Part shown: piece by piece, positions 1 through 17,545 of the stretch
Numbering within the stretch: the stretch's first letter is position 1
How the letters are laid out: every line of letters starts with the position of its first letter
From: Planctomycetota bacterium
GTDB lineage: Bacteria; Planctomycetota; UBA1135; UBA2386
Length of the DNA stretch: 64,000 nt
Assembly: GCA_046290465.1 (NCBI GenBank)
Contig: JBKAGP010000001.1
Span: forward strand, 1,344,001 to 1,408,000
Direction: 5' to 3'
Notes under the pieces: model-generated
The model's input: only the letters and a program-made list of their open reading frames with translations
The model's database searches: none
What the model was told of the DNA's origin: nothing
Made by a program: the position numbers and the translations under genes

Positions 1-1
1 T

Positions 2-541
2 ACTTACAGTCAGGTCTCCCGGGGCCTCGGAAATAACATCCACAGGCCACCATGAGTCGGCCGCGCTCAGCGGAACCTGATTCGCATCACCGGCTAACGC
101 AAGGGCGATGCGAACCGCACTCCAGCGATATGCAAACAACGACACCGGATCACTTCCAAATGCACCCCATAATGGAGGCTCAAACTCGGAGTCAATGGAG
201 TCGTTGAGCAACTTGCAGCGGCTTCGAACGACAGAGAACTCCGACGACGTCCCCCGCCACAGCACATACTCTCGCCACCTGGACCGCATGGCAGCATGTA
301 GCCCCATAGCCCAGTCTTCACTCAACAGGGGATGCAGCGCCCTTAGAATGTGCATTTCGCCACTCTCTAAGCGATCCCCCTTGGGCACTTCGACTACCAA
401 CACCTGCACGTCAACAGCACCGAGCCCCCCGACACCCACGCATTCCACGCGAAAACCCAAGCGTCGCAGCCCGTTATGACTTTCCACGAGACGCCGCATC
501 TGGTCGTCTCTCCAGGCCGTAACTAGTGGCAACCAGTCCAT
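2..541 (-). CDS. Hypothetical protein, 3'-truncated by window edge (>=180 aa, MDWLPLVTAWRDDQMRRLVESHNGLRRLGF...)
   Basis: Manually translated: ATG at 541 preceded by GAGAGGGGG, no stop down to base 2; starts 25 nt after the stop of the upstream gene; absent from the ORF track. Confidence 0.7.
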   Translation of the reverse strand, partial: MDWLPLVTAWRDDQMRRLVESHNGLRRLGFRVECVGVGGLGAVDVQVLVVEVPKGDRLESGEMHILRALHPLLSEDWAMGLHAAMRSRWREYVLWRGTSSEFSVVRSRCKLLNDSIDSEFEPPLWGAFGSDPVSLFAYRWSAVRIALALAGDANQVPLSAADSWWPVDVISEAPGDLTVS

Positions 542-565: not shown

Positions 566-1690
566 CTATCCAGCCGCACCCAAGATGGCTGGTGGGAAAA
601 CAGGCATCGGAAGGCCCGGCGGCCACATGGGATACCGGGTGATTAAGAACCAAATTACCAAGCCTACCACGATTCCGATTCCGATTGCCCACTTTAACCA
701 GGTGGGCACAGCTGGCTCTGAAGGCTCCCACGGCTGACCGCCGCCTCCACCGCCTCCACCAGGGACAGACTCGGGAGCGGGGTCGGGTGCCGGATCGGGC
801 TCAGGCTCTGGCCACGGGGCCGGCCCGGGACCCGGCTCGGGATGCGGAAGCTCTGGCGGCTCCTCGGGGAGTTCTGCACGCTCCCCTCGCGGCGGCCACG
901 GCACACCCATGGGAATACAGCGACAAAACCACTTCTTCAGATCGAACAGTTTGACGATCTCACAACGCCCTCGAGGGTGGCACGTCTGATTCACACAATA
1001 TACATCTCTGAAGTTAATACGCTCGCCAACACACTGAAACTCGGTGTGGTTATCGTGCTTCCATCCCTTCGGCGGGGTCCATATCTCAGAATCCCCCGGG
1101 CCGCGCATTGGCCCCGGCCCGATTGGTAGCAACACCTTGCCAGCCAACACCTGCGCTAGCCCCGGGCGAAGCAACCGAATCACGGAGGGGCTAACCTCCC
1201 CAGCACGCCCCACGTAGCGACCCAGGTCGGTCCGCTGCCCGCCACCACCAGACATTTGAGCGATAGACCTCAGACTGACACGGTTTGGAATTACAATACG
1301 GCGGCCCGATGCCACCTGTTCTCGCGCAACCCGCACTGCCCTATCAATAATGCTCGGGAGGGCCACATCATGCAGCCCCATAGAGTCGAGCACTTTTGCA
1401 GCTGCCCCGACGATATCCACCCTTGCCTTCGCTCGACGACCAGATTCGCGTGGCTCGGCAGCCCCACCGAATGGACGCCTGCATGCACAATCACTCGAAC
1501 CATCGCAACCACAGGCATCAATGCCGACACAAGATTCACCAAGATGCGACTGCCTGCGCCCCACATTCCACACACTCTTCCCGAACTGCGGATACTCACG
1601 CCCCACAGCCCCAATGTCACTCAGCCCCATGGGCCCAGGCTCCATCGTTGCAGAGCCACCACAACCGCCTTCACCGTGATCGCAATCCAT
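566..1690 (-). CDS. Cys-rich protein with Pro/Glu linker and C-terminal transmembrane helix
   Basis: GGAG SD; Cys clusters CVGIDACGCDGSSDCAC and C-x11-C-x4-C-x5-C-x12-C-x-C; PE/PD repeats; hydrophobic WAIGIGIVVGLVIWFLI near the C-terminus. Confidence 0.75.
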   Translation of the reverse strand: MDCDHGEGGCGGSATMEPGPMGLSDIGAVGREYPQFGKSVWNVGRRQSHLGESCVGIDACGCDGSSDCACRRPFGGAAEPRESGRRAKARVDIVGAAAKVLDSMGLHDVALPSIIDRAVRVAREQVASGRRIVIPNRVSLRSIAQMSGGGGQRTDLGRYVGRAGEVSPSVIRLLRPGLAQVLAGKVLLPIGPGPMRGPGDSEIWTPPKGWKHDNHTEFQCVGERINFRDVYCVNQTCHPRGRCEIVKLFDLKKWFCRCIPMGVPWPPRGERAELPEEPPELPHPEPGPGPAPWPEPEPDPAPDPAPESVPGGGGGGGGQPWEPSEPAVPTWLKWAIGIGIVVGLVIWFLITRYPMWPPGLPMPVFPPAILGAAG

Positions 1691-1779: not shown

Positions 1780-2139
1780 CTAGCGGTCGGTCCGCCAGGA
1801 CGGCTGGAGTGCCCGGAACATCACGAAATTGGTGGTCCCTTTGGTCCCGCCAGTGCTGAACTTGTAGCGCACCAACTCCTGCATGGTGTTCGTGCTATCG
1901 TCGTTGACGGCGACCTTTACCCCCGACTGCCCCGAGGTGAACGTGACCGCTGTTGCGAGCAGAGTGCTTGGAGTCACGCTCTCCTTGGTGCGCGTCTCGA
2001 CCTGCCACGTCAGGCTGGCCGAGCTGTTCTCCAGCACCTCGACACCGAATGTCGCGAAGTCACCACGCACCGGCATCCACGGTGTGTAGACTGCGGTAAC
2101 GCCGGTATAGAGAATCTGTCCTTGAAGCTGATTTGTCAT
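1780..2139 (-). CDS. Small beta-rich protein, paralog C of tandem triplet (119 aa)
   Basis: Start revised to ATG 2139 after TAG-AGGATCCC; motifs LQGQ, YTPWMPVRGD, EV, ETR, ELVRYK, FRALQPSW. Confidence 0.85.
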   Translation of the reverse strand: MTNQLQGQILYTGVTAVYTPWMPVRGDFATFGVEVLENSSASLTWQVETRTKESVTPSTLLATAVTFTSGQSGVKVAVNDDSTNTMQELVRYKFSTGGTKGTTNFVMFRALQPSWRTDR

Positions 2140-2147
2140 GGGATCCT

Positions 2148-2489
2148 CTAGTTGGGCGACCACAAGGGCTGAGACAGCTGGAAGTGCATGACTGCAGATC
2201 CGGTGCTGTTGACGACGCGATACCGAACAAGGTCTTGGGCATTAACGACCTTGAACTGGAACAGCCCTGGCGTCGTAGAATCTACAACCTGGCTGCCGAT
2301 AGACGATGCACCCGAGTCGTCTTCATCGCTCGACTTGGTGTCCAAGTGGACGGTGTATTGGTTGGCCGCCGACACGTAGAACACCTCAATCGCCGCAACA
2401 CCATCGTTGCCCCCTGCCGGCATCCAGAAACCCTCGTATTTCACGGCCCCGTCTGAGGCCACGGTCTCTCCGAGAAGAAGTGGGTCCAC
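2148..2489 (-). CDS. Small beta-rich protein, paralog B of tandem triplet (113 aa)
   Basis: GTG start after GGAGG SD; motifs LLGE, WMPAGGN, EV, DTK, DLVRYR, FQLSQPLW. Confidence 0.85.
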   Translation of the reverse strand: MDPLLLGETVASDGAVKYEGFWMPAGGNDGVAAIEVFYVSAANQYTVHLDTKSSDEDDSGASSIGSQVVDSTTPGLFQFKVVNAQDLVRYRVVNSTGSAVMHFQLSQPLWSPN

Positions 2490-2498
2490 TTGATCCTC

Positions 2499-2852
2499 CT
2501 AGTTTGGCTGCCAAATTGGCGCGTTTGAACGAAAGTGGATCCACGCCGCAGTGGACTCACCATCTCCTGATGCCGTGAACTTGAAGCGGACAAGCTCCTT
2601 GGCGGCCGAGGGGTTGATTGTGCCCAACTCTGGCCACGCAGTCCCATTGATTGTCACACTTCCCGTCAAACCCGTGGCGGAACTGTCCGCATCCTCGGCG
2701 TTTTTAGTCTCAGCCTCACAAACAAGGCTGTAAGGCGACATCGCCTCGATGACTTCAAAGACCCCCGTAAATGCATCCCCTTGCCGGGGAAACCACGGGG
2801 AATAGTAGGTCGCACCAGGCCCCGGGGCGAATACTGTTTGCCCGATCAGCAT
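2499..2852 (-). CDS. Small beta-rich protein, paralog A of tandem triplet (117 aa)
   Basis: GAGGAG SD; motifs LIGQ, YSPWFPRQGD, EV, ETK, ELVRFK, FRSNAPIW. Confidence 0.85.
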   Translation of the reverse strand: MLIGQTVFAPGPGATYYSPWFPRQGDAFTGVFEVIEAMSPYSLVCEAETKNAEDADSSATGLTGSVTINGTAWPELGTINPSAAKELVRFKFTASGDGESTAAWIHFRSNAPIWQPN

Positions 2853-2907: not shown

Positions 2908-2969
2908 AGCCTCGGCGCCACCGACAAGAGCATCCTAGAGCCTCGGCGCCACCGACAAGAGCATCCTAG
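2908..2969. repeat. Perfect 31-bp tandem duplication AGCCTCGGCGCCACCGACAAGAGCATCCTAG x2
   Basis: Copies read directly at 2908-2938 and 2939-2969. Confidence 0.95.
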
Positions 2970-4153: not shown

Positions 4154-4630
4154 TCAGATGCCCTTGACCAGATGTGAGGTGGCTGCGTCCGCGATCTCCT
4201 TCGCGGTCATCGGCACCATAGCGTGGTCCAGTCCGGCCACCCAGTCCTCGATGTCCTTGCGGCGCCACAGCTGCTTCGAGAGCCGGGTGAAGCGGACGGG
4301 GGCCGGCGCCTCTCCGTAGGTCACCAGCCGCTGCCAGGACTGGATGCCCATTCCACTCAGGTGGGCAGCTGTCTTCGCATCGACCAGGAGCGGAGACTCT
4401 CGCTGGGAGCTGCGCGCACCCCTTGCTGGCGTCCTTGCCGGATCCTGACCGCCCATGTCGCCCCTGGATGCTCGCGCGACGCCTACGCTTGGCAACCTCT
4501 CCCGAATGGCGCCCGCTCCCCCTGCGATCTCAACTGCGTCGCCCAAGATCCGGACGAGCAAACGCAGCCTCCTCGCCAGGACTGCGGTCTCGGCGGGCGG
4601 GCCCTGGGCGGCATGCCGTTCGTTGCTCAT
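4154..4630 (-). CDS. AlpA/excisionase-like HTH protein with N-terminal extension
   Basis: LLVDAKTAAHLSGMGIQSWQRLVTYGEAPAPVRF...LWRRKDIEDWV matches the AlpA/HTH_17 pattern. Confidence 0.75.
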   Translation of the reverse strand: MSNERHAAQGPPAETAVLARRLRLLVRILGDAVEIAGGAGAIRERLPSVGVARASRGDMGGQDPARTPARGARSSQRESPLLVDAKTAAHLSGMGIQSWQRLVTYGEAPAPVRFTRLSKQLWRRKDIEDWVAGLDHAMVPMTAKEIADAATSHLVKGI

Positions 4631-4724
4631 CGGGGCGGAGCCTACAAGCTGAGACGAGGAACACGCCGCCGGAACGAGAACTTCCATACTTCAACTGGCC
4701 GGCGGCTCATGCTATTGCGAAGGA

Positions 4725-5294
4725 ATGAGGAAGAAGACCGCTGCCGACACCGCGGCCAAGCCAGCTACGAGCGTGCTGCGTCCCCTGGTCGCCTTGGGGC
4801 TACTCGGGGCCCTGGGAGCCTGCCATGGACCACTGCGCCAAACCGACGCCGATGGCTGGCACACCTGGGGTGGACCACCACCACCACCGCTCCACCGGCC
4901 AAACCTCGGTGAACAGGTCCTGCTCTACCTGCCGAACAGGCTCGTGGACTTGGCGGAGATCGTCTCGGTCTCGTTCGGGGTGGGAGTCAGCCCCGGGGTA
5001 GATCTGCGGGTAACCCAATGGGGCCAATTCGCCCTCCAGGCAGGAGCAGGAGCAGGGTTCCAGTGGGACGACAGAGCGACCGACCCCAGGATAGCCACCG
5101 CCTATGCAACGGCGGCTGTGGGACCATGGAGAGCCGGAGCCGGCACAGGCCGGGTGGCGAGCGTGGGCGCATGGGAGGTCGCCGTAGGGCTTGGAGGCCA
5201 GAAGTTCGGGGTTGACCTTGCAGAGGCGGCGGACTTTCTGCTGGGGTGGTTCTTCATCGATATCCAAGGGGATGACTATGGTTGGGTCCGATAG
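4725..5294 (+). CDS. Lipoprotein of unknown function
   Basis: Lipobox LGAC after a hydrophobic stretch; PNRLVD...GVG...RVT and C-terminal DFLLGWFFIDIQGDD. Confidence 0.75.
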   Translation: MRKKTAADTAAKPATSVLRPLVALGLLGALGACHGPLRQTDADGWHTWGGPPPPPLHRPNLGEQVLLYLPNRLVDLAEIVSVSFGVGVSPGVDLRVTQWGQFALQAGAGAGFQWDDRATDPRIATAYATAAVGPWRAGAGTGRVASVGAWEVAVGLGGQKFGVDLAEAADFLLGWFFIDIQGDDYGWVR

Positions 5295-6339
5295 CCAGCC
5301 CGAAGGCGCCCCAGACACTGCGAGCAAGGACCGCGACGACACAGCCAGAGCGCCTAACCGGGACTCATCAGAATTCCTGACCAAGGGAGATCCTGAGCAC
5401 TACGAAATAGCGGCGAGAGGCACAGCTGCCCTCAAGGCATGGGCAGCTCGCAACCCTGGATTCCCCCTCTCTCTCCGCTTGACAGGTGCGATGATGCCTT
5501 TGGCCCAACTGCGCGGAGCACCCCTCACGTTGGCGGATCTTTCGCATGCGACCCTGTCACATGCTGACCTGAGCAATGCGAACCTGACAGCCGCAAGCCT
5601 CCAGGGGGCCGATCTTGCGAAGGCAAATCTGAGTGGCGCAAACCTAACGAGGGCAACACTCAGCGGCGCCGACCTATCCTGCACGGATCTGCGCGGAGCG
5701 AATCTGAAGCACGCCGACCTCAGCGAAGCCGACCTGAGGAGACCGCCTATCGGCCTCATCCTCGACTGTCAGGACATTCGCGGCACCCGCTTCTCACCCC
5801 GGGCACCAGATCCATGGTCAGTTCTCCGACGCGAATACACCGGGCCTCGCCTCCTCTTCCACCTGCTCTTGCTGGTCGCGTTTCTGTCTCGCTATCTGAT
5901 ACGTGCCGCGAAGTGGTCGGCCTGGGAGCATGTCCAGCCGCACTTAGAGAATGGCGATTGCCATTGGATCGCATGGCAGTTGACCGGAGGACCGGGGGCA
6001 GGCATGGCTACCGCGTTCGAAATCATGAGCAAGCAGGTGGCGCTGACGAACTCGTGGCCCCGGTGGCAGCTACTCCTCGGGTGGGACCTGGGCAACTTGG
6101 CAGTCGCCACGTCAGCAATACTGATCGCCTACAATGCCACGCGACTGGTCCTGACCTATCGACTGTCGGCAGTCCGCGATGCCGAGGAACGATCCAACTT
6201 CGCCCCGGCGCGAGAGGACTATTGGCGGTGGTGGCTGGCCCACAGGTGGTTCATGCGCTGGGTAGTATGGTTCGCGACCCTATCGGCAGCAGGTCATATT
6301 ATCCCCTGGCTACTGGAGACGATCACCAGACCTCACTGA
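5278..6339 (+). CDS. Pentapeptide-repeat protein with C-terminal membrane domain
   Basis: Run of A(D/N)Lxx repeats (ADLSH ATLSH ADLSN ANLTA...) followed by several hydrophobic segments; start uncertain (5272 or 5278). Confidence 0.85.
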   Translation: MVGSDSQPEGAPDTASKDRDDTARAPNRDSSEFLTKGDPEHYEIAARGTAALKAWAARNPGFPLSLRLTGAMMPLAQLRGAPLTLADLSHATLSHADLSNANLTAASLQGADLAKANLSGANLTRATLSGADLSCTDLRGANLKHADLSEADLRRPPIGLILDCQDIRGTRFSPRAPDPWSVLRREYTGPRLLFHLLLLVAFLSRYLIRAAKWSAWEHVQPHLENGDCHWIAWQLTGGPGAGMATAFEIMSKQVALTNSWPRWQLLLGWDLGNLAVATSAILIAYNATRLVLTYRLSAVRDAEERSNFAPAREDYWRWWLAHRWFMRWVVWFATLSAAGHIIPWLLETITRPH

Positions 6340-7335: not shown

Positions 7336-10300
7336 TTAGGAGCCACTGGCCACCACCGAGTCCATCTCCTCCACGACTTCACTCAGGGCCTGCTGGACCT
7401 TCAGGAAGTTCCTCTTGGAGTCTGCTCGGGTTGTGGTGGGGATTCCCTCGTGATTCCGCAGCCGCCTGAGACACCTCTGGACGGTGGAGCTGGATAGCCT
7501 GGTTCTGGTCTCGATGATCTGCTTGATGGTCTTCCTCTTCCTCTCGTGCCTCCACCCGGGAGCCAGGACATCAGATACGACAGGGTGGTCAACTAGGTCA
7601 GTTAACGACCCCCCATCCCCCATATCCTCTACCCCCTTAGGGTCCCGAGAATAACTGACCCCCCTACCTCTGAAGCTGGAGGAACCAGAGGGAGAGCTAT
7701 CAACACCCCCCAGGCCCCTTAATAGGGATTCAGTAGCCCTGAGGCTCGGAGGATCTCCATCAAGATCCACCACCCAATCCTTGAGGACCTTCTCGTGGAT
7801 CTCGGTGGTGGTCGTGGCGGGGCCTCTATCGAGGACCTGGCGGACCAGATCCCGGTGCCGGAGGGCCCTCGGCCCGCTGGACCACGTCAGCATCAGCCCC
7901 TCCGGGTCCCTCAGCAGATCCAGCCCGACCACCTCTACCTCTTCGGTCGCCTCCACTCCCTCCACCGGGTCGCTGTCGAACAGGACGATGGTCGACGAAG
8001 GGTTGGTCATCGGCCGGCACCGACCCACGGCATTGACCATGAGCTGAGCCTCCAGTGTCCTGTAGACCTGTCGGGCCCTGGGGTCCCGAGGCACCTTGAG
8101 CCCGTAAGAACGCTGAGCAGCCGGGCACCACCGTCGCTCCCAGCGGACCAACGACTCGGCAGCCTCCGACGCCTCCAGCGGACTCATTGGCAGCCCGAGC
8201 ACACCCTCCATGGCAGCGGTCAGCCAAGCACACTCGGCGGGATGGGGTCGATACCGCTGCACCAGCATCACCTCGGCATGATCGAAGGTGTTGGTCCCCG
8301 CGTGGTGCGAGTTGTAGTAGCCAACCCTGCTGCCGTGCTCTTCCAGGGACGGGGCCAGGTGCTCAAAGCTCACCTTCGTGGTCAACACGCCGAGACCGTT
8401 GCCAAAGGACTGAGACAGGCCGCTGGCGACCAGCCGGAACAGCTCGTCGGACTTACTCGGCTCCTGACCAACGGGGGCACCTCGACCCTTGTAACCCCTC
8501 GGCAGCTTGAGCCGGACAATTCGGTTGCTCAGGCTCCACTCGGCGTGCCTTCTCTCGATGCCCAGAGCCTGGACGACGAACTCCATCATGGGCCCGACGC
8601 TGAGCCACAGACACCTGCCCTGCTGGGCCTTGTCGATCACGAGGGTATTGGCCTCGGCCACGATGAGCTTCCCGCTCTTGCCCCGCTTGACGGCTCCCGG
8701 CCGCCCCTCCACGGCCTGACGCAGCAGACCAAACAGCCGCAGGGAGAACGCGGGTTGGTCGGGTTTCGACTCCCAGGGCATAGCGCTTCCAGCGCCAGTC
8801 TCACAATCGGCTACCAAGCCACGCTGCCCCTCGGACATCGAGCCTGCGAAGTGGGCCAGCCGATCGACTCCACCGTCATCGTCCAGCAAGCACCCGACCA
8901 CATCGCGCAGCAGGCCGCCCAACCGCACCAGCTCGGAGCTTGCTGCTGGATGATCTGCCAGCCACCGGCCGATTCGATCCCTGTAGTCGTCCAGCGGACC
9001 ACGGTGGAACTCCGAGTCCGTGAACAGCCCGAACTCGGCCCCCGGATCGTCGAGAATCAGAACGGCGTCATCTCGCCCCGCCTGCTCCAGCGCCGGCCTC
9101 AGGTGCCTGAGGTAGTCGATCGTCGTTACGACCAGCGACGGGCCGTCCTCAGAGATCGCCGCATGAGCGGCCTCCTGGCCCTTCAGGTATTGGCACTCCC
9201 TGGCGTGCTGGCTATCGCCTCGACAGCTTGTCCTGCCCAGCTGTGCCCGCCTCTCGTAGACGCTGCTCGCCGCGAACGAGCAATAGAACGGGCCATCGGG
9301 GTCCTTGCCGCGACCCATGGCCACTGCCAGCCGCGCGCCCGCTGCCAACAGCTGGTCCTCCAATGGCCCCTCCCCCATGTCGCCGCAGACCTCGTTGACC
9401 CGAGCCCGCTTGGCCACAGCCATAATGACCGTGCCGACCCGCCCCTCGCCCAGCAGCTCCACCGCCCAGGCCCTGGCCGTGCGGGTCTTCGAAAGCCCTG
9501 GAGGGCCGGAGAACGCGACCGACCGAGTGCCCGGCTCGAAGCTGACACCTGACCGTGCGATCTCCTGCAGGGCCTCGGGTTGACCAGACCGAGCAACGGG
9601 CAAAGTCGTCTCGATCTTCGGGGGCGCCTCTGCGGCGTGTAGATCGACCATCGGCCAGCCGGCTGCCTTGGCCCACCCCGCGACCGCTTCCAGGGTCAAG
9701 TCGCCATCCTCGTTGAAGCAGTCCCACTGACGCACGATCTCCGCGGAATCGTAGCTGTCCGGGCTCTGCTGGCTCCACTGATCCCATAGCTGCTGCCCGC
9801 CCGAGGATCCTCCGAATCCTTGGTGCAGGCCCATCCCGACATAAAGCCACGTCAGCCGGTCACTGTGACCCGAGAGGTGATCCAGCATTTCCCGCACGAC
9901 CTCGATATTCGGCGACCTTCCATATCGCTCGCTCTTTGGGTTCGGTCGATGATTGCGCCGTTCGACCTGGGGCACGGACAGCATGCTCAACAGAGGCGCT
10001 GGGATCGGCTCGATGCCGACCTCATAGACCGACCGTCCTGCCGCCCACGCGTAGCCCCCGCCGGATTGGTGGGGCGATGGAGGCGCGACGACCGGCTTCT
10101 TCCCCGTCTGAAGGTCGATGCCAGGATACCGCTTGGCGAAGCCACTCGGCTTGATGCCCTGGGCAGACCCCGCGGGCAGCCTCAGGTAGATGTGCATCGC
10201 ACCGTTGGCAGTCATGGCGGTGGCGGTGTTCATAGGAAGATCCACGCCCAGGTCTTTGCAGAGCTGCGCCAGAGAGGCCCGACCATCCTTCCCGTTCTTC

Positions 10301-10611
10301 ATGTCGATGTCGAGCACCAGCAAGCGCCGCCCCGTGACGAGCATCACCAGTGCATCCGGCCACCGAGCCCACCACTGCGACAGCTGCCCCTGATCCAAAG
10401 ACGCACTCTCTACCGCCTTGGTGATTCGGGGCTTTTTCCGCCCGTCTCGATGCTCGCCGGGGACCATGCCGACGCCCAGCCCTGAATTCCTGAGCCATGA
10501 GGCCAGCCGCAACACCTCGGCCACATAGGCACTCGACCCCGGCACCATCTCGGGCTCCGCCGCCACGTTCGTCTCGTCCATCGCCCACCTCCAGACATCG
10601 CCCACGGCCAT
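7336..10611 (-). CDS. Replicase: bifunctional primase/polymerase (Prim-Pol) + PriCT-2 + divergent SF2-like helicase + C-terminal HTH
   Basis: LLVLDIDMKNGKDG, TANGAMHIY, VVAPPSPH (Prim-Pol); WLYVGMGLH...WDQWSQQS...W (PriCT-2); GPPGLSKT, LILDD, AGTN, NAVGRCRP (helicase motifs I, II, V, VI). Confidence 0.85.
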   Translation of the reverse strand: MAVGDVWRWAMDETNVAAEPEMVPGSSAYVAEVLRLASWLRNSGLGVGMVPGEHRDGRKKPRITKAVESASLDQGQLSQWWARWPDALVMLVTGRRLLVLDIDMKNGKDGRASLAQLCKDLGVDLPMNTATAMTANGAMHIYLRLPAGSAQGIKPSGFAKRYPGIDLQTGKKPVVAPPSPHQSGGGYAWAAGRSVYEVGIEPIPAPLLSMLSVPQVERRNHRPNPKSERYGRSPNIEVVREMLDHLSGHSDRLTWLYVGMGLHQGFGGSSGGQQLWDQWSQQSPDSYDSAEIVRQWDCFNEDGDLTLEAVAGWAKAAGWPMVDLHAAEAPPKIETTLPVARSGQPEALQEIARSGVSFEPGTRSVAFSGPPGLSKTRTARAWAVELLGEGRVGTVIMAVAKRARVNEVCGDMGEGPLEDQLLAAGARLAVAMGRGKDPDGPFYCSFAASSVYERRAQLGRTSCRGDSQHARECQYLKGQEAAHAAISEDGPSLVVTTIDYLRHLRPALEQAGRDDAVLILDDPGAEFGLFTDSEFHRGPLDDYRDRIGRWLADHPAASSELVRLGGLLRDVVGCLLDDDGGVDRLAHFAGSMSEGQRGLVADCETGAGSAMPWESKPDQPAFSLRLFGLLRQAVEGRPGAVKRGKSGKLIVAEANTLVIDKAQQGRCLWLSVGPMMEFVVQALGIERRHAEWSLSNRIVRLKLPRGYKGRGAPVGQEPSKSDELFRLVASGLSQSFGNGLGVLTTKVSFEHLAPSLEEHGSRVGYYNSHHAGTNTFDHAEVMLVQRYRPHPAECAWLTAAMEGVLGLPMSPLEASEAAESLVRWERRWCPAAQRSYGLKVPRDPRARQVYRTLEAQLMVNAVGRCRPMTNPSSTIVLFDSDPVEGVEATEEVEVVGLDLLRDPEGLMLTWSSGPRALRHRDLVRQVLDRGPATTTTEIHEKVLKDWVVDLDGDPPSLRATESLLRGLGGVDSSPSGSSSFRGRGVSYSRDPKGVEDMGDGGSLTDLVDHPVVSDVLAPGWRHERKRKTIKQIIETRTRLSSSTVQRCLRRLRNHEGIPTTTRADSKRNFLKVQQALSEVVEEMDSVVASGS

Positions 10612-10810: not shown

Positions 10811-11245
10811 CTAGCGGGAGACCGCCTCCAACCAGTTGCGGATGTCTTCCGGCTTCCAGAAGACCCTCCGCCCGATGCGACGCTCGCGGGGGAACTCGCC
10901 TCGATCCCTGAAGCGATTGATCGTGGTCGCCGATAGCCCGGTCACCGCCACCACGTCGGCCAGATCCCACTGCTCCTTCTGGTCCAGCGGGACCTCCACC
11001 TTGCGGCGCTTCTGGCTCGGATTGTAGGTCGCCCGACCCCGCCGGTTGGTGGTTGCGGTGCTGGCCCCCTCGCTTGTCTGCTTGGTGGTCGCAGCTCTGG
11101 GGCCCTGGACTGTCTGCTTGGTCGCGGTGTTGGCCACCTGGCTCTTATGCTGGTTGGTCGCAGGACTGACCGCCTGGCTCCCCTGCCGCTGCTCGCTGCG
11201 CAACTCTCTCTCACTCGTCGAATCGACGCTCATGTCTACCTCCAT
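10811..11245 (-). CDS. alpA: AlpA-family transcriptional regulator/excisionase
   Basis: DLADVVAVTGLSATTINRFRDRGEFPRERRIGRRVFWKPEDIRNWL is a classic AlpA pattern; long low-complexity N-terminus. Confidence 0.85.
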   Translation of the reverse strand: MEVDMSVDSTSERELRSEQRQGSQAVSPATNQHKSQVANTATKQTVQGPRAATTKQTSEGASTATTNRRGRATYNPSQKRRKVEVPLDQKEQWDLADVVAVTGLSATTINRFRDRGEFPRERRIGRRVFWKPEDIRNWLEAVSR

Positions 11246-11881: not shown

Positions 11882-13150
11882 TCAGGCTTGCATGGGCAGA
11901 ATCGCGGGGCGATCAAGCCGGGCCACCGCCTCCTTCCCCTGACTGGGCCCCATCCGGGCGTATCGCTGCTGCATGACCGGAGCCGTGGTCGCCGTGAGCA
12001 TCGCAGACACCCGAGGATCCACGTCAGCCTCGTAGAGCCGGGTGGAGGCGTAGGTCTTCAACGCATGAAAGTCGATCCGCTCTCGGCCCGAGCACCGCTC
12101 GATTCCAGCGAACTCCAGGTCCTTATCCATGAGCCGCTTGATGTTCTTCGGGACCGGCAGCAAGCAGAACACCCGCTCAGAGGCGAGGGGCTCACGCCGC
12201 AGGTGACCAGCCATCCGAGATCTCCACGCCACGAACTGGTCCCGGAGCCACTCGGGCATGTCGGGCCGTGCCTCCCGACGGTTCTTCGCGTAGGCGGCCT
12301 GGAGCCGCAGGACCGATGCCTCTAGATCCAGGTCGCCCCATTGAATCGACCACAGCGCCTTCTGGCGGACTCCGAGTGTCCCCGCCAGCACGTAGGCCAG
12401 GGCACGCGCCTCCCCACGAATCCGCAGCTCCTGGAGGACGTGCACAGGAGTCCTCGGGTTGGCCTGCAGCTTGTTCTCTACCCCTCGCCGCACCGCAGCA
12501 TCCACGAGCCGAGCAAACTCGTCGGTGGTCATCGCCCGACGGACGAAGGTGGCCGTTGCCTCTGGATGGCTCGGAGAACAGAGCTTGGAGATCGAGGCCA
12601 GCGGGTTGGCATGCAGCCGACCGTGGATCACCAGCCAGCGGCAGAAGTGCCTGAGGCTGTCAAGGTAGTCGTCCCGGGTCTTGCTGCTCTTCGCGCGCAG
12701 CCGGCGCTGCCGTGCAGACTCAGACTCTCCCGCCAGCTCGTCCGCCGATAGACACCGATCCGGAATGCCCGAAGCACAGAACTCGATGAGCAGCGCCTCG
12801 GTGGCGGTGACGTTGATGTCCGTGATCCTCTGCACCCGCAGCCCCCTCAGCATCCGACCAAGCCGCATCGCGACCTGAGCCCGGTAGCCCGGAGTCGTCT
12901 GCCGTGCCTTCAAGTGTTGGAGGAAGTCCCCGACATGCTTGGGGACTGGCTGAGCGGCGAACTCGATCGACTTGTCCACCAGCCCGAACTTGCGGCGGGC
13001 GACCTCAGACTCCAGCTCGTAGGCGACCCGCTCGGCATCTCGCCGGCCGTTACCGTTCGCACGAAACGCTGTAGCCTTCCAACGTTCCTTGCCGTTCTCG
13101 TCCCTGTAGCGGATGGTCCAACGACCCCCGCGATCTACCAAACTCGACAT
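11882..13150 (-). CDS. Tyrosine recombinase/integrase
   Basis: Arm-binding-like N-terminus (WTIRYRDENGKERW), GVRQKAL...WGDLDL, AKNRR, DFHALK, QRY. Confidence 0.92.
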   Translation of the reverse strand: MSSLVDRGGRWTIRYRDENGKERWKATAFRANGNGRRDAERVAYELESEVARRKFGLVDKSIEFAAQPVPKHVGDFLQHLKARQTTPGYRAQVAMRLGRMLRGLRVQRITDINVTATEALLIEFCASGIPDRCLSADELAGESESARQRRLRAKSSKTRDDYLDSLRHFCRWLVIHGRLHANPLASISKLCSPSHPEATATFVRRAMTTDEFARLVDAAVRRGVENKLQANPRTPVHVLQELRIRGEARALAYVLAGTLGVRQKALWSIQWGDLDLEASVLRLQAAYAKNRREARPDMPEWLRDQFVAWRSRMAGHLRREPLASERVFCLLPVPKNIKRLMDKDLEFAGIERCSGRERIDFHALKTYASTRLYEADVDPRVSAMLTATTAPVMQQRYARMGPSQGKEAVARLDRPAILPMQA

Positions 13151-13281
13151 CGATTAGACCCCTTCTTGTTGACCTGCCCGCCCACCGGAAACGCCTCCGA
13201 TGTAGCAAATCAGGTAGCAGTAGGCGTCGCCGGCACCGTAACCCGTGCGCAGGTCACGCGCAAACGCAGGCGACGGGAGGA

Positions 13282-13304
13282 TTCGACTCCCCTACTCTCC
13301 ACCA
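13282..13304 (+). other. Attachment site: 3' fragment of tRNA-Ala-like (or tmRNA) gene
   Basis: TTCGACT T-loop, CCCCT stem arm, ACTCTCC-A-CCA acceptor arm (U70, A73); upstream half missing; GTAGCA repeats at 13202-13219; hairpin at 13338-13355. Confidence 0.75.
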
Positions 13305-13518
13305 TCTCGCACTGCGTTGGGAAGAGCATCAGGAGCGGCTTCAGGCCCCTGAAGCACCCACAGGCGCGAGTTGCAGCGACTCTGCCTCCTTGCGCCCAGA
13401 CACGCACGACACCCAGCTGAATAGGTAGTGCAGCATGCGCTCTGCGCTACCCCGCATCGCCCCTCCAGTTGCTAACAAGCTCCCAGGCTGCGTAGCATCC
13501 CTGCCAAAGGAGGTCGAG

Positions 13519-15826: not shown

Positions 15827-17545
15827 CTAGCGGCGCTGGAGCTCGTGCGGCACCCAGGCGCGGTGCGGCCGCACGCCGAGCGGTCCCGGCACGCAGTCCT
15901 CGATGTCCTTGCGGAACAGCATCGACGCCATCGGGTGCACGATCAGCGCCGCTGGCTGCTCCTGGTGCGCCAGCTTGTGCAGCTGCTGCCACAGCTCGTT
16001 GCGCCGTTCCGGATCGAACTCCTGCTGGGCTGCGGCCGCGAGCCGGTCGGCCTCCTCGTGCTGCCAACGGCCCTCGCCGCGGTTCTCGAGACCTTCGCTG
16101 TGCAGCAGCGTGTAGGCGCCGCCCCACGGCTCGAATGCCTTCAGGCCGTAGATGCCGTGCCACTGCCGCGCCTTCTTGACCGCCAGGAACTGCGCGTGCT
16201 TCAGCTCGCGAAACTCGAACTGCACGCCAGCGCGGGACGCGGCGTCGGTGATGAGGTCCATCGTGCGCCGCACCGCCGGCGGCGACGGAAACGTCAGGAT
16301 CGTCACCTTCAGCGGCTTGCCCTCGGCGGGGTCGTAGCCGCACTCCCGCAGCAGCGCGCGCGCCGCCTTGGGGTCGTACGGCAGCGGCTGCAGGTCCGGA
16401 TACTCGTCCGAGCCGTAGCGCGCGTGCGCCGCCGCCGGGTGCGCCGCGCCCGACCAGACCTCGACGATGTCCTTGCGCGGGATCAGCATGCCGAGCGCGC
16501 GCCGCACCTTCGGGTCGTTGGTCGGCGCGATCTCGCAGTTCCACGCGATGCGCAGCACGCCGAGCTTGATGTAGTCGTAAACGAGCTTCTCGTAGTCCTG
16601 CTCGAGTTCGGGGCGCGACGCCAGCAGCTGGTCGAGCTGCTGGTCCATGTACCAGTCGACCTCGCCGCGCAGCAGCGCGTTCTTGGCGCCGGCCTGGTCG
16701 CGGAACATGATGCGCACGCCGCCGAGGTTCCAGGTACCCGGCTGCGCGCGGCGCCGCCAGCAGCCCTCGTTGCGGACCAGCAGCAGCTCCTGGCGGCGCT
16801 GCCAGTTCTGCTCGCCGGCCGGGTCGTTGCGCAGTTCATACGGGCCGGTGCCCGGGCCGCATTCTTCGTCGATCCGGTCGACCAGCTCGGCGAAGCGCGC
16901 GCTCGAGACCGGCGGCATCGGCTCGCCGTCGTCGAGCGCCTTCTGCACGCGCTGCTCGAAGAACCGTCGCTGCACCACCGTCCAGCGTTCGCCGACCTGG
17001 TCCAGCGCCGCGTAGTGGCGGCCGTCGAAGTGCACGCGGAAGCGCCGGTCGTCGAGCTCGTCGACCGCCCGCACCCGCTGGAACGCGAGGCCGACGTAGC
17101 CGAGGTTGAGGTGGCCGGCCTGCGCCAGCTCCCAGCCGAACAGCACGTCCTTCATCGTCATCGCACTGCCGTCCGCGAACGTCACGCCGTCGCGCAGCGT
17201 GAACACGCAGGTCGAACCGTCGGCCGACAGCTCGTAGCTCTCGGCCAGGGCCGGTCGCAGCTCCCCGCTCTCCGGGTCGCGGTCGAGCAGCGCTTCGTGC
17301 GTGTAGGCCAGCACCAGGCCGTTGGCGACCGGGTGGTAGGTCGTCAGCGGATTGACGTCGGACGGCTCGCCGCCCGGCAGCGCCCCGGAGTCGACGTGGC
17401 CCTGCGGCTTGCCGGCGAGCGTGCGCGGCATCGTGCCCGTCGTCGTCGGCGTCGAGCCGCTGCCCCACATCACCGTCAGCGCGAGGCCGCCGCCGAACAG
17501 CACGAGCAGCAGGAGCAACAGGAGTGGCAGGGTGCGCATCGGCAT
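15827..17545 (-). CDS. ABC transporter substrate-binding protein, family 5 (peptide/nickel type)
   Basis: LRPALAESYELSADG...FTLRDGVTFADG, GTGPY, DPKVRRAL, YDPKAARALL. Confidence 0.92.
   Translation of the reverse strand: MPMRTLPLLLLLLLVLFGGGLALTVMWGSGSTPTTTGTMPRTLAGKPQGHVDSGALPGGEPSDVNPLTTYHPVANGLVLAYTHEALLDRDPESGELRPALAESYELSADGSTCVFTLRDGVTFADGSAMTMKDVLFGWELAQAGHLNLGYVGLAFQRVRAVDELDDRRFRVHFDGRHYAALDQVGERWTVVQRRFFEQRVQKALDDGEPMPPVSSARFAELVDRIDEECGPGTGPYELRNDPAGEQNWQRRQELLLVRNEGCWRRRAQPGTWNLGGVRIMFRDQAGAKNALLRGEVDWYMDQQLDQLLASRPELEQDYEKLVYDYIKLGVLRIAWNCEIAPTNDPKVRRALGMLIPRKDIVEVWSGAAHPAAAHARYGSDEYPDLQPLPYDPKAARALLRECGYDPAEGKPLKVTILTFPSPPAVRRTMDLITDAASRAGVQFEFRELKHAQFLAVKKARQWHGIYGLKAFEPWGGAYTLLHSEGLENRGEGRWQHEEADRLAAAAQQEFDPERRNELWQQLHKLAHQEQPAALIVHPMASMLFRKDIEDCVPGPLGVRPHRAWVPHELQRR

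Follow-up and report, generated by a model that had tools for sequence, protein, structure and literature searches.

What could three small, related genes in tandem do inside an integrative element of a bacterium of the Planctomycetota? They lie on the minus strand near the left end of the window, the 64,000-nt stretch of contig JBKAGP010000001.1 that was analysed in this study, and a preliminary description had read them as jelly-roll subunits of a particle or delivery module. In the explanation that we prefer, with a probability of roughly 0.58, the triplet forms the invariant leading part of a polymorphic toxin-immunity cassette found in Planctomycetota, and the jelly rolls would act as a carrier that binds the leader of the toxin.

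The jelly-roll genes and their island

The features on which the argument is based are as follows (window coordinates, strand, description and basis).

1..541, minus: gene after the cargo, 303 aa, cut off by the left window edge; candidate immunity gene solely on the basis of its position
566..1690, minus: cargo gene, 374 aa, putative toxin with leader, Cys-rich patch and variable C-terminal region (no Pfam/PHROG family)
641..697, minus: hydrophobic helix close to the C-terminal end of the cargo, residues 332-350 (19-residue Kyte-Doolittle value 2.33)
1481..1531, minus: Cys-rich patch of the cargo, residues 54-70 (sequence)
1553..1630, minus: triplet-specific leader of the cargo, residues 21-46, with an FPQFG-type motif, here YPQFG (sequence and profile)
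1780..2139, minus: P3, jelly-roll protein 3, 119 aa (ORF, ESM Atlas match, tree)
2148..2489, minus: P2, jelly-roll protein 2, 113 aa, GTG start (ORF, alignment, tree)
2499..2852, minus: P1, jelly-roll protein 1, 117 aa (model and fold search; P1 subfamily in tree)
4154..4687, minus: AlpA/excisionase-like gene of the island (phrog_66, E 4e-4)
7336..10611, minus: Prim-Pol and PriCT_2 replication protein of the island (Pfam/PHROG matches)
10811..11245, minus: AlpA regulator of the island (PF05930, phrog_66)
11882..13150, minus: tyrosine integrase of the island (PF00589, phrog_1)
13279..13417, plus: right attachment repeat, a copy of the tRNA-Ala 3' end and the DNA following it (repeat comparison)

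The minus-strand ORFs of the three related 113-119-aa proteins were verified, the six motifs named in the preliminary description are all present in P1, P2 and P3, and both junctions read AAC-TAG-(G)AGGATC-NN-start as described there. The P1-P2 and P2-P3 gaps are 8-9 nt long, with ribosome-binding sites. Pairwise identity among the three proteins is 28-31%, and the local alignment scores of the pairs (123, 115 and 63) were not reached in any of 2000 shuffles each. No fourth copy of the family was found in the rest of the 6.6-Mb genome. The family had been called unrecognised, which agrees with the fact that no Pfam or PHROG family reached the cut-off for P1, P2 or P3. An exact 31-bp tandem duplication (window 2908-2969) lies about 55 bp upstream of P1, and the matches in a promoter and terminator scan were at chance level.

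About eight beta-strands in a jelly-roll-like arrangement had been anticipated, with structure prediction proposed as the check, and the AlphaFold2 model of P1 is indeed an eight-strand sandwich (pLDDT 92.4, pTM 0.85) that matches jelly rolls. Its best structural matches were PirA (Z 10.2, rmsd 2.4 A, 95 aligned), IBDV VP2 (Z 10.0) and XepA (Z 9.6), followed by GOLD domains, carbohydrate-binding modules (Z 8-8.5), Ena fibre subunits (Z 7.5-9.1) and the BPP-1 cement protein (Z 7.7); satellite-virus capsids were also found in the fold searches (Z 7.3-7.9). PirA was matched again by a second model, that of a natural two-domain fusion of the family (Z 10.8). The identity to the top matches is 10-13%, PirA, the viral capsid domain and XepA are tied (Z 9-10), and tied scores of predicted models reveal no function. 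The nearest ESM Atlas clusters are small phage proteins (TM 0.66-0.78), some of which carry Bbp16 (11-39% of members), XepA (23%) or DUF6385. Foldseek against PDB and BFVD returned generic jelly rolls only, the best with E values of about 1e-3 to 1e-4. When PDB, Pfam and PHROGs were searched with profiles, the matches were few, scattered and weak. For 137 family members, Pfam and PHROGs gave no consistent family, and XepA/YomS, Bbp16 and DUF6385 were not among the families matched. Because the AlphaFold2 sandwich and its fold matches point to a jelly roll and neither Pfam nor PHROG provides a name, the predicted fold of P1-P3 is that of a single jelly roll of no named family. In the fusion model both domains fold, with no confident packing between them (pTM 0.54), and a fold search of this model added nothing on geometry.

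The triplet lies in a 15-kb island with a GC content of 64% vs 70% in the flanks and the genome. A tRNA-Ala gene is located about 1.7 kb left of the window. A 142-bp att repeat (115/142 identical, 81%), which includes a 23-bp perfect core from the tRNA-Ala 3' end, has one copy there and the other at window 13279-13417. Together with the tyrosine integrase, the two AlpA-like genes, the Prim-Pol gene and the GC shift, this bears out the earlier statement that the element is integrative and, as judged from its gene content, satellite-like. The integrase, AlpA, primase, tRNA attachment site and 15-kb size resemble those of PICI-like elements and phage satellites. However, no small terminase or capsid gene was recognised in the island, and the triplet is accessory cargo; neither a capsid nor a terminase was recognised by PHROGs among the 34 window ORFs. 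In tblastn searches, no homolog of the island primase, AlpA or integrase was found beside any other array of the family. Because these core genes were not found near the other arrays, the triplet is regarded as a passenger of the tRNA-Ala island and not as its capsid. Further cargo of the island on the plus strand comprises a 189-aa ORF with a lipoprotein-like N-terminus (window 4725-5294) and a pentapeptide-repeat protein with hydrophobic C-terminal segments (window 5191-6339). At the left end of the island, a 197-bp repeat (L001:16467-16657 and 17284-17472, 73% identical) sits between the tRNA and the gene after the cargo.

The family is much larger than this island, comprising 61 close homologs and 849 clusters at 50% identity. 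It is present in 32 of 401 genomes of the phylum, and 5 of the 8 named records are titled Planctomycetota. A broader profile detected it in 10 of 61 related genomes, in only 1 of 14 from the same genus, and with up to 22 matches per genome. The genes form arrays of one to five (86 arrays, some of them duplicates), and natural two-domain fusions exist. The order P1-P2-P3 was found in 16 of the 86 arrays, in one more with a frameshifted P1 and in another that continues with P2-P2, and one array is rearranged; the labels were assigned by similarity to the window proteins and agree with gene position. Identity within a position is 52-56% vs 28-31% between positions, and each position forms one side of a well-supported branch in a tree with 14 rows per group. 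The triplet is old and fixed in order. The conserved triplet synteny with variable downstream genes that had been proposed as a gene-neighbourhood check was therefore recovered, with three position-specific subfamilies; however, the family is not always a triplet.

Integrases and IS elements recur next to the arrays, as does an ECF-sigma-like gene, which is upstream of the array in 10 other loci and absent from the window. Among 131 neighbouring ORFs scanned, no capsid, portal, terminase, packaging, other virion or secretion family was detected. Two scans of IMG/VR found no relative, although these used exact peptide patterns and distant viral relatives may be missed, and none was found in isolated phages or plasmids. 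The suggestion that the triplet is a structural module of a satellite-like element was not borne out by these neighbourhoods or by IMG/VR. Two genomes contain expansions of several cassettes of different array types, with 22 (G435; L127-L129, L135, L136) and 16 (G416; L130-L132) family matches, and many of these arrays are at contig ends or interrupted by IS elements and frameshifts. L053:2993-8628 and L005:5262-12505 each contain a tandem pair of complete cassettes, in which the jelly-roll genes are near-identical while the cargo and partner genes differ.

The leader-bearing cargo and the gene after it

Of the 64 arrays whose downstream DNA is long enough, counted after removal of six duplicate loci, 62 are followed by a long same-strand ORF. 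An early Cys cluster was present in this ORF in 41 of the 64 arrays vs 102 of 2339 control ORFs; the 23 arrays without it count against a toxin cassette. The FPQFG leader was intact behind 13 of the 15 triplets with downstream DNA, decayed behind one and absent behind one; the last case also counts against the cassette. A profile built from the 13 triplet-downstream sequences matched no non-triplet array among the 86, and other array types carry other common leaders (two clusters of four). In these sequences the leader is tied to the triplet type. In 60 related genomes all six leader matches were 64-116 bp behind a jelly-roll gene, one of them, by coordinates, probably being a locus used in building the profile. 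A database search yielded 57 leader-bearing proteins with the leader at residue 9-32 in all of them, a median length of 323 aa, 6% Cys and no hydrophobic N-terminus or signal peptide. The GC3 of the jelly-roll genes was higher than that of their own cargo in 11 of 11 cassettes. Gene calls for the cargo and the next gene were heuristic.

The genome studied here has two leader matches, one of which is an orphan (G000:C1:2809579-2810448, L106). The orphan cargo has the same leader, with its start apparently missing and short direct repeats before it; after it come a small membrane gene and the remnant of a tyrosine recombinase, and no jelly-roll genes are nearby. In L042:2164-2300 the leader motif is duplicated in tandem.

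The 56 C-termini of leader-bearing proteins fell into 23 clusters, and the same C-terminal family was found behind different leaders, which shows that C-terminal domains are exchanged behind a constant leader. Three leader-bearing proteins have a PLA2-like motif and one an HExxH motif. An Ntox44-like domain is present in 13 of the 57, two of which had been used for training, and also forms the tip of two RHS proteins among four longer matches; in this genome, no copy fused to RHS was detected with the cargo-domain profiles. The Pfam match to Ntox44 is just under the cut-off, and the Ntox44 motifs listed in the available text of PMC3482391 are visible in the alignment of these cargos. DUF3750, a papain-like family according to the part of PMC10318531 at hand, was above the Pfam cut-off in 5 of 69 downstream ORFs, and eleven leader-bearing proteins have an NSN-type motif like that of DUF3750. 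At E 0.05, Pfam gave no match for 61 of the 69 downstream ORFs and 55 of the 57 leader proteins. In the window cargo, the C-terminal region closes with a Pro/Gly linker and a single transmembrane-like helix; it matched no family and forms a cluster of its own. Both results count against toxin cassettes; known toxin-type domains could be discerned by sequence in relatives only, with the window cargo being unrecognised. The idea that the Ntox44-like cargos are Lipocone enzymes was unsupported, and the term does not occur in the text of PMC12419801 at hand.

In most cassettes a small, tightly linked and variable gene of membrane or lipoprotein-like type comes after the cargo. An early hydrophobic segment was found in 30 of 49 genes after the cargo vs 719 of 2339 control ORFs (31%), in a set of heuristic gene calls with one ORF chosen by hand and one locus dropped. 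For toxins that act on membranes, immunity proteins located in the envelope are known (PMC12419801, text available in part). Three points count against the cassette here: the gene in the window is not hydrophobic, 41 genes after the cargo matched no named immunity family (one HEAT-repeat match), and Ntox44, a predicted RNase, fits poorly with membrane-type partners.

The proposed layout is thus three jelly rolls, a leader with a Cys/Gly spacer and an exchangeable toxin domain, and an immunity gene. For assembly, binding, export route and toxicity we infer the following. P1-P3 would be made together, given their 8-9 nt gaps and ribosome-binding sites, and may assemble into a hetero-oligomer, to which the fixed order, position-specific conservation and two-domain fusions point. 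The hetero-oligomer would recognise the leader of roughly 25 residues, by analogy with Lap1/Lap2 or PirA with PirB, and the jelly rolls could carry the toxin out of the cell onto the target envelope without a Sec signal, T6SS, eCIS or T7SS. The delivery module of the preliminary description finds support to the extent that the triplet precedes a gene with a leader and a swapped C-terminal domain. A bolder version, which is tentative, makes the jelly rolls a complete device for toxin delivery in themselves: a ring, shell or fibre of hetero-oligomers that descends from cement- or penton-like proteins of phages, independent of known secretion systems and loaded with interchangeable toxins through the leader code.

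Alternative functions of the jelly rolls

The jelly rolls could instead form a large particle of their own, either an encapsulin-like shell that packs cargo by the leader or an Ena-like fibre with the cargo at its tip. The matches to satellite-virus capsids, Ena subunits and pentameric XepA/YomS (PMC6834076, PMC8812541, as far as the available text goes), the one to five paralogs per array and the fact that no external secretion machine co-occurs are consistent with this. However, each array has about one cargo gene, with no gene for a scaffold, an anchor or maturation in its neighbourhood, and the capsid and Ena matches do not rise above unrelated carbohydrate-binding modules. Moreover, the family proteins are nearly Cys-free (median 0.9%), whereas Ena pili are titled disulfide-linked. 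Such a particle is considered unlikely.

We also think it quite improbable that the system is no weapon at all, with the Cys-rich protein and its membrane partner forming a surface recognition or signalling pair and the jelly rolls being lectin-like or chaperones. Most cargos indeed have no recognised toxin domain, an ECF-sigma-like gene is upstream in the 10 loci mentioned above, and carbohydrate-binding modules are among the better fold matches. Nevertheless, RHS-tip domains, swapping behind a constant leader, and tandem and orphan cassettes are hallmarks of polymorphic toxins, according to the text of PMC3482391 at hand.

The prospects are slim for the jelly rolls as adaptors or cement that hang the cargo on a helper phage head, a T6SS or an eCIS. 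The nearest Atlas clusters being small phage proteins, some with Bbp16, XepA or DUF6385, would suit such a role, as would the integrases near several arrays. This genome also has two gp19/VgrG-containing (eCIS-like) loci and one T6SS locus (C1 about 993-996 kb, 1.59-1.60 Mb and 2.11-2.12 Mb). However, 4 of 31 carriers and 66 of 369 other genomes had the gp19 (eCIS) tube gene, and for the T6SS sheath the counts were 3 of 31 and 92 of 369, in a comparison of incomplete, related MAGs whose non-carrier set may hide weak members. Among five further carriers, gp19 was present in one and the T6SS sheath in three; the genome with 16 family matches has neither, and WXG100 was above the cut-off in 1 of 41 carriers. 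Carriers were thus not enriched for T6SS, eCIS or WXG100 genes, the cargos have no signal peptide and no export route was found; an obligate link of the cassette to these machines is unlikely.

Finally, a strict capsid or penton reading, in which the triplet encodes virion proteins of an integrative element that packages its own DNA, is very improbable. It is favoured by the jelly-roll fold and by the content of the 15-kb island, which has integrase, AlpA and primase genes while none of the 34 ORFs was recognised as a capsid gene, but these points are outweighed by other triplets without island genes, by the lack of a packaging ATPase or other virion family nearby and of relatives in IMG/VR (exact peptide patterns), isolated phages or plasmids, and by a constant partner that is the leader-cargo gene.

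Relation to known systems and significance

The preferred toxin-immunity cassette shares with polymorphic toxin systems, as described in the available text of PMC3482391, a constant 5' part, an exchangeable C-terminal domain, the order of toxin then putative immunity gene, orphan cassettes and Ntox44-like tips common to RHS proteins. It differs in that the cargos have no signal peptide and no RHS, PAAR/VgrG, WXG/LXG, MuF or PrsW matches; one to five upstream jelly-roll genes and a short leader are found instead. LXG toxins likewise have small upstream genes and a toxin with a conserved N-terminus and a variable C-terminus, and the Laps bind the conserved part of the toxin (PMC9600955, from the text at hand). 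However, Lap1 and Lap2 are WXG100-like helical proteins of T7SSb, whereas all-beta jelly rolls are found here, and WXG100 is rare in the carriers.

In PirA/PirB, too, a small jelly-roll gene is located beside a toxin gene, and PirA, the best fold match, is the binding partner in that binary toxin (PMC10159206, available in part). The differences are the 12% identity with no PDB or Pfam sequence match, the three paralogs, a variable cassette partner with no Cry-like PirB match in Pfam, and the immunity-type gene that follows. XepA/YomS (PMC6834076, as far as its text was available), the Bbp16 cement protein and DUF6385 match the triplet in size and fold, and small phage jelly rolls of this kind are likely the evolutionary source of the family, but the triplet is not in phage lysis or head modules and no viral contig was found. 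Ena pili are similar in fold and differ in the Cys content noted above.

A search of the main texts of openly available papers found no description of this cassette, and we regard it as most probably a polymorphic toxin system with a new variant of trafficking. It would add an unannotated protein family, with its 849 clusters, to these systems and is a candidate for a new trafficking mode in a phylum of which few members have been cultured. The pairing of leader types with jelly-roll types would be a directly testable recognition code, and with the leader as bait, dozens of uncharacterised Cys-rich effector domains could be collected. Should the jelly rolls prove to be the vehicle, they would represent another virion-type fold recruited for interbacterial conflict.
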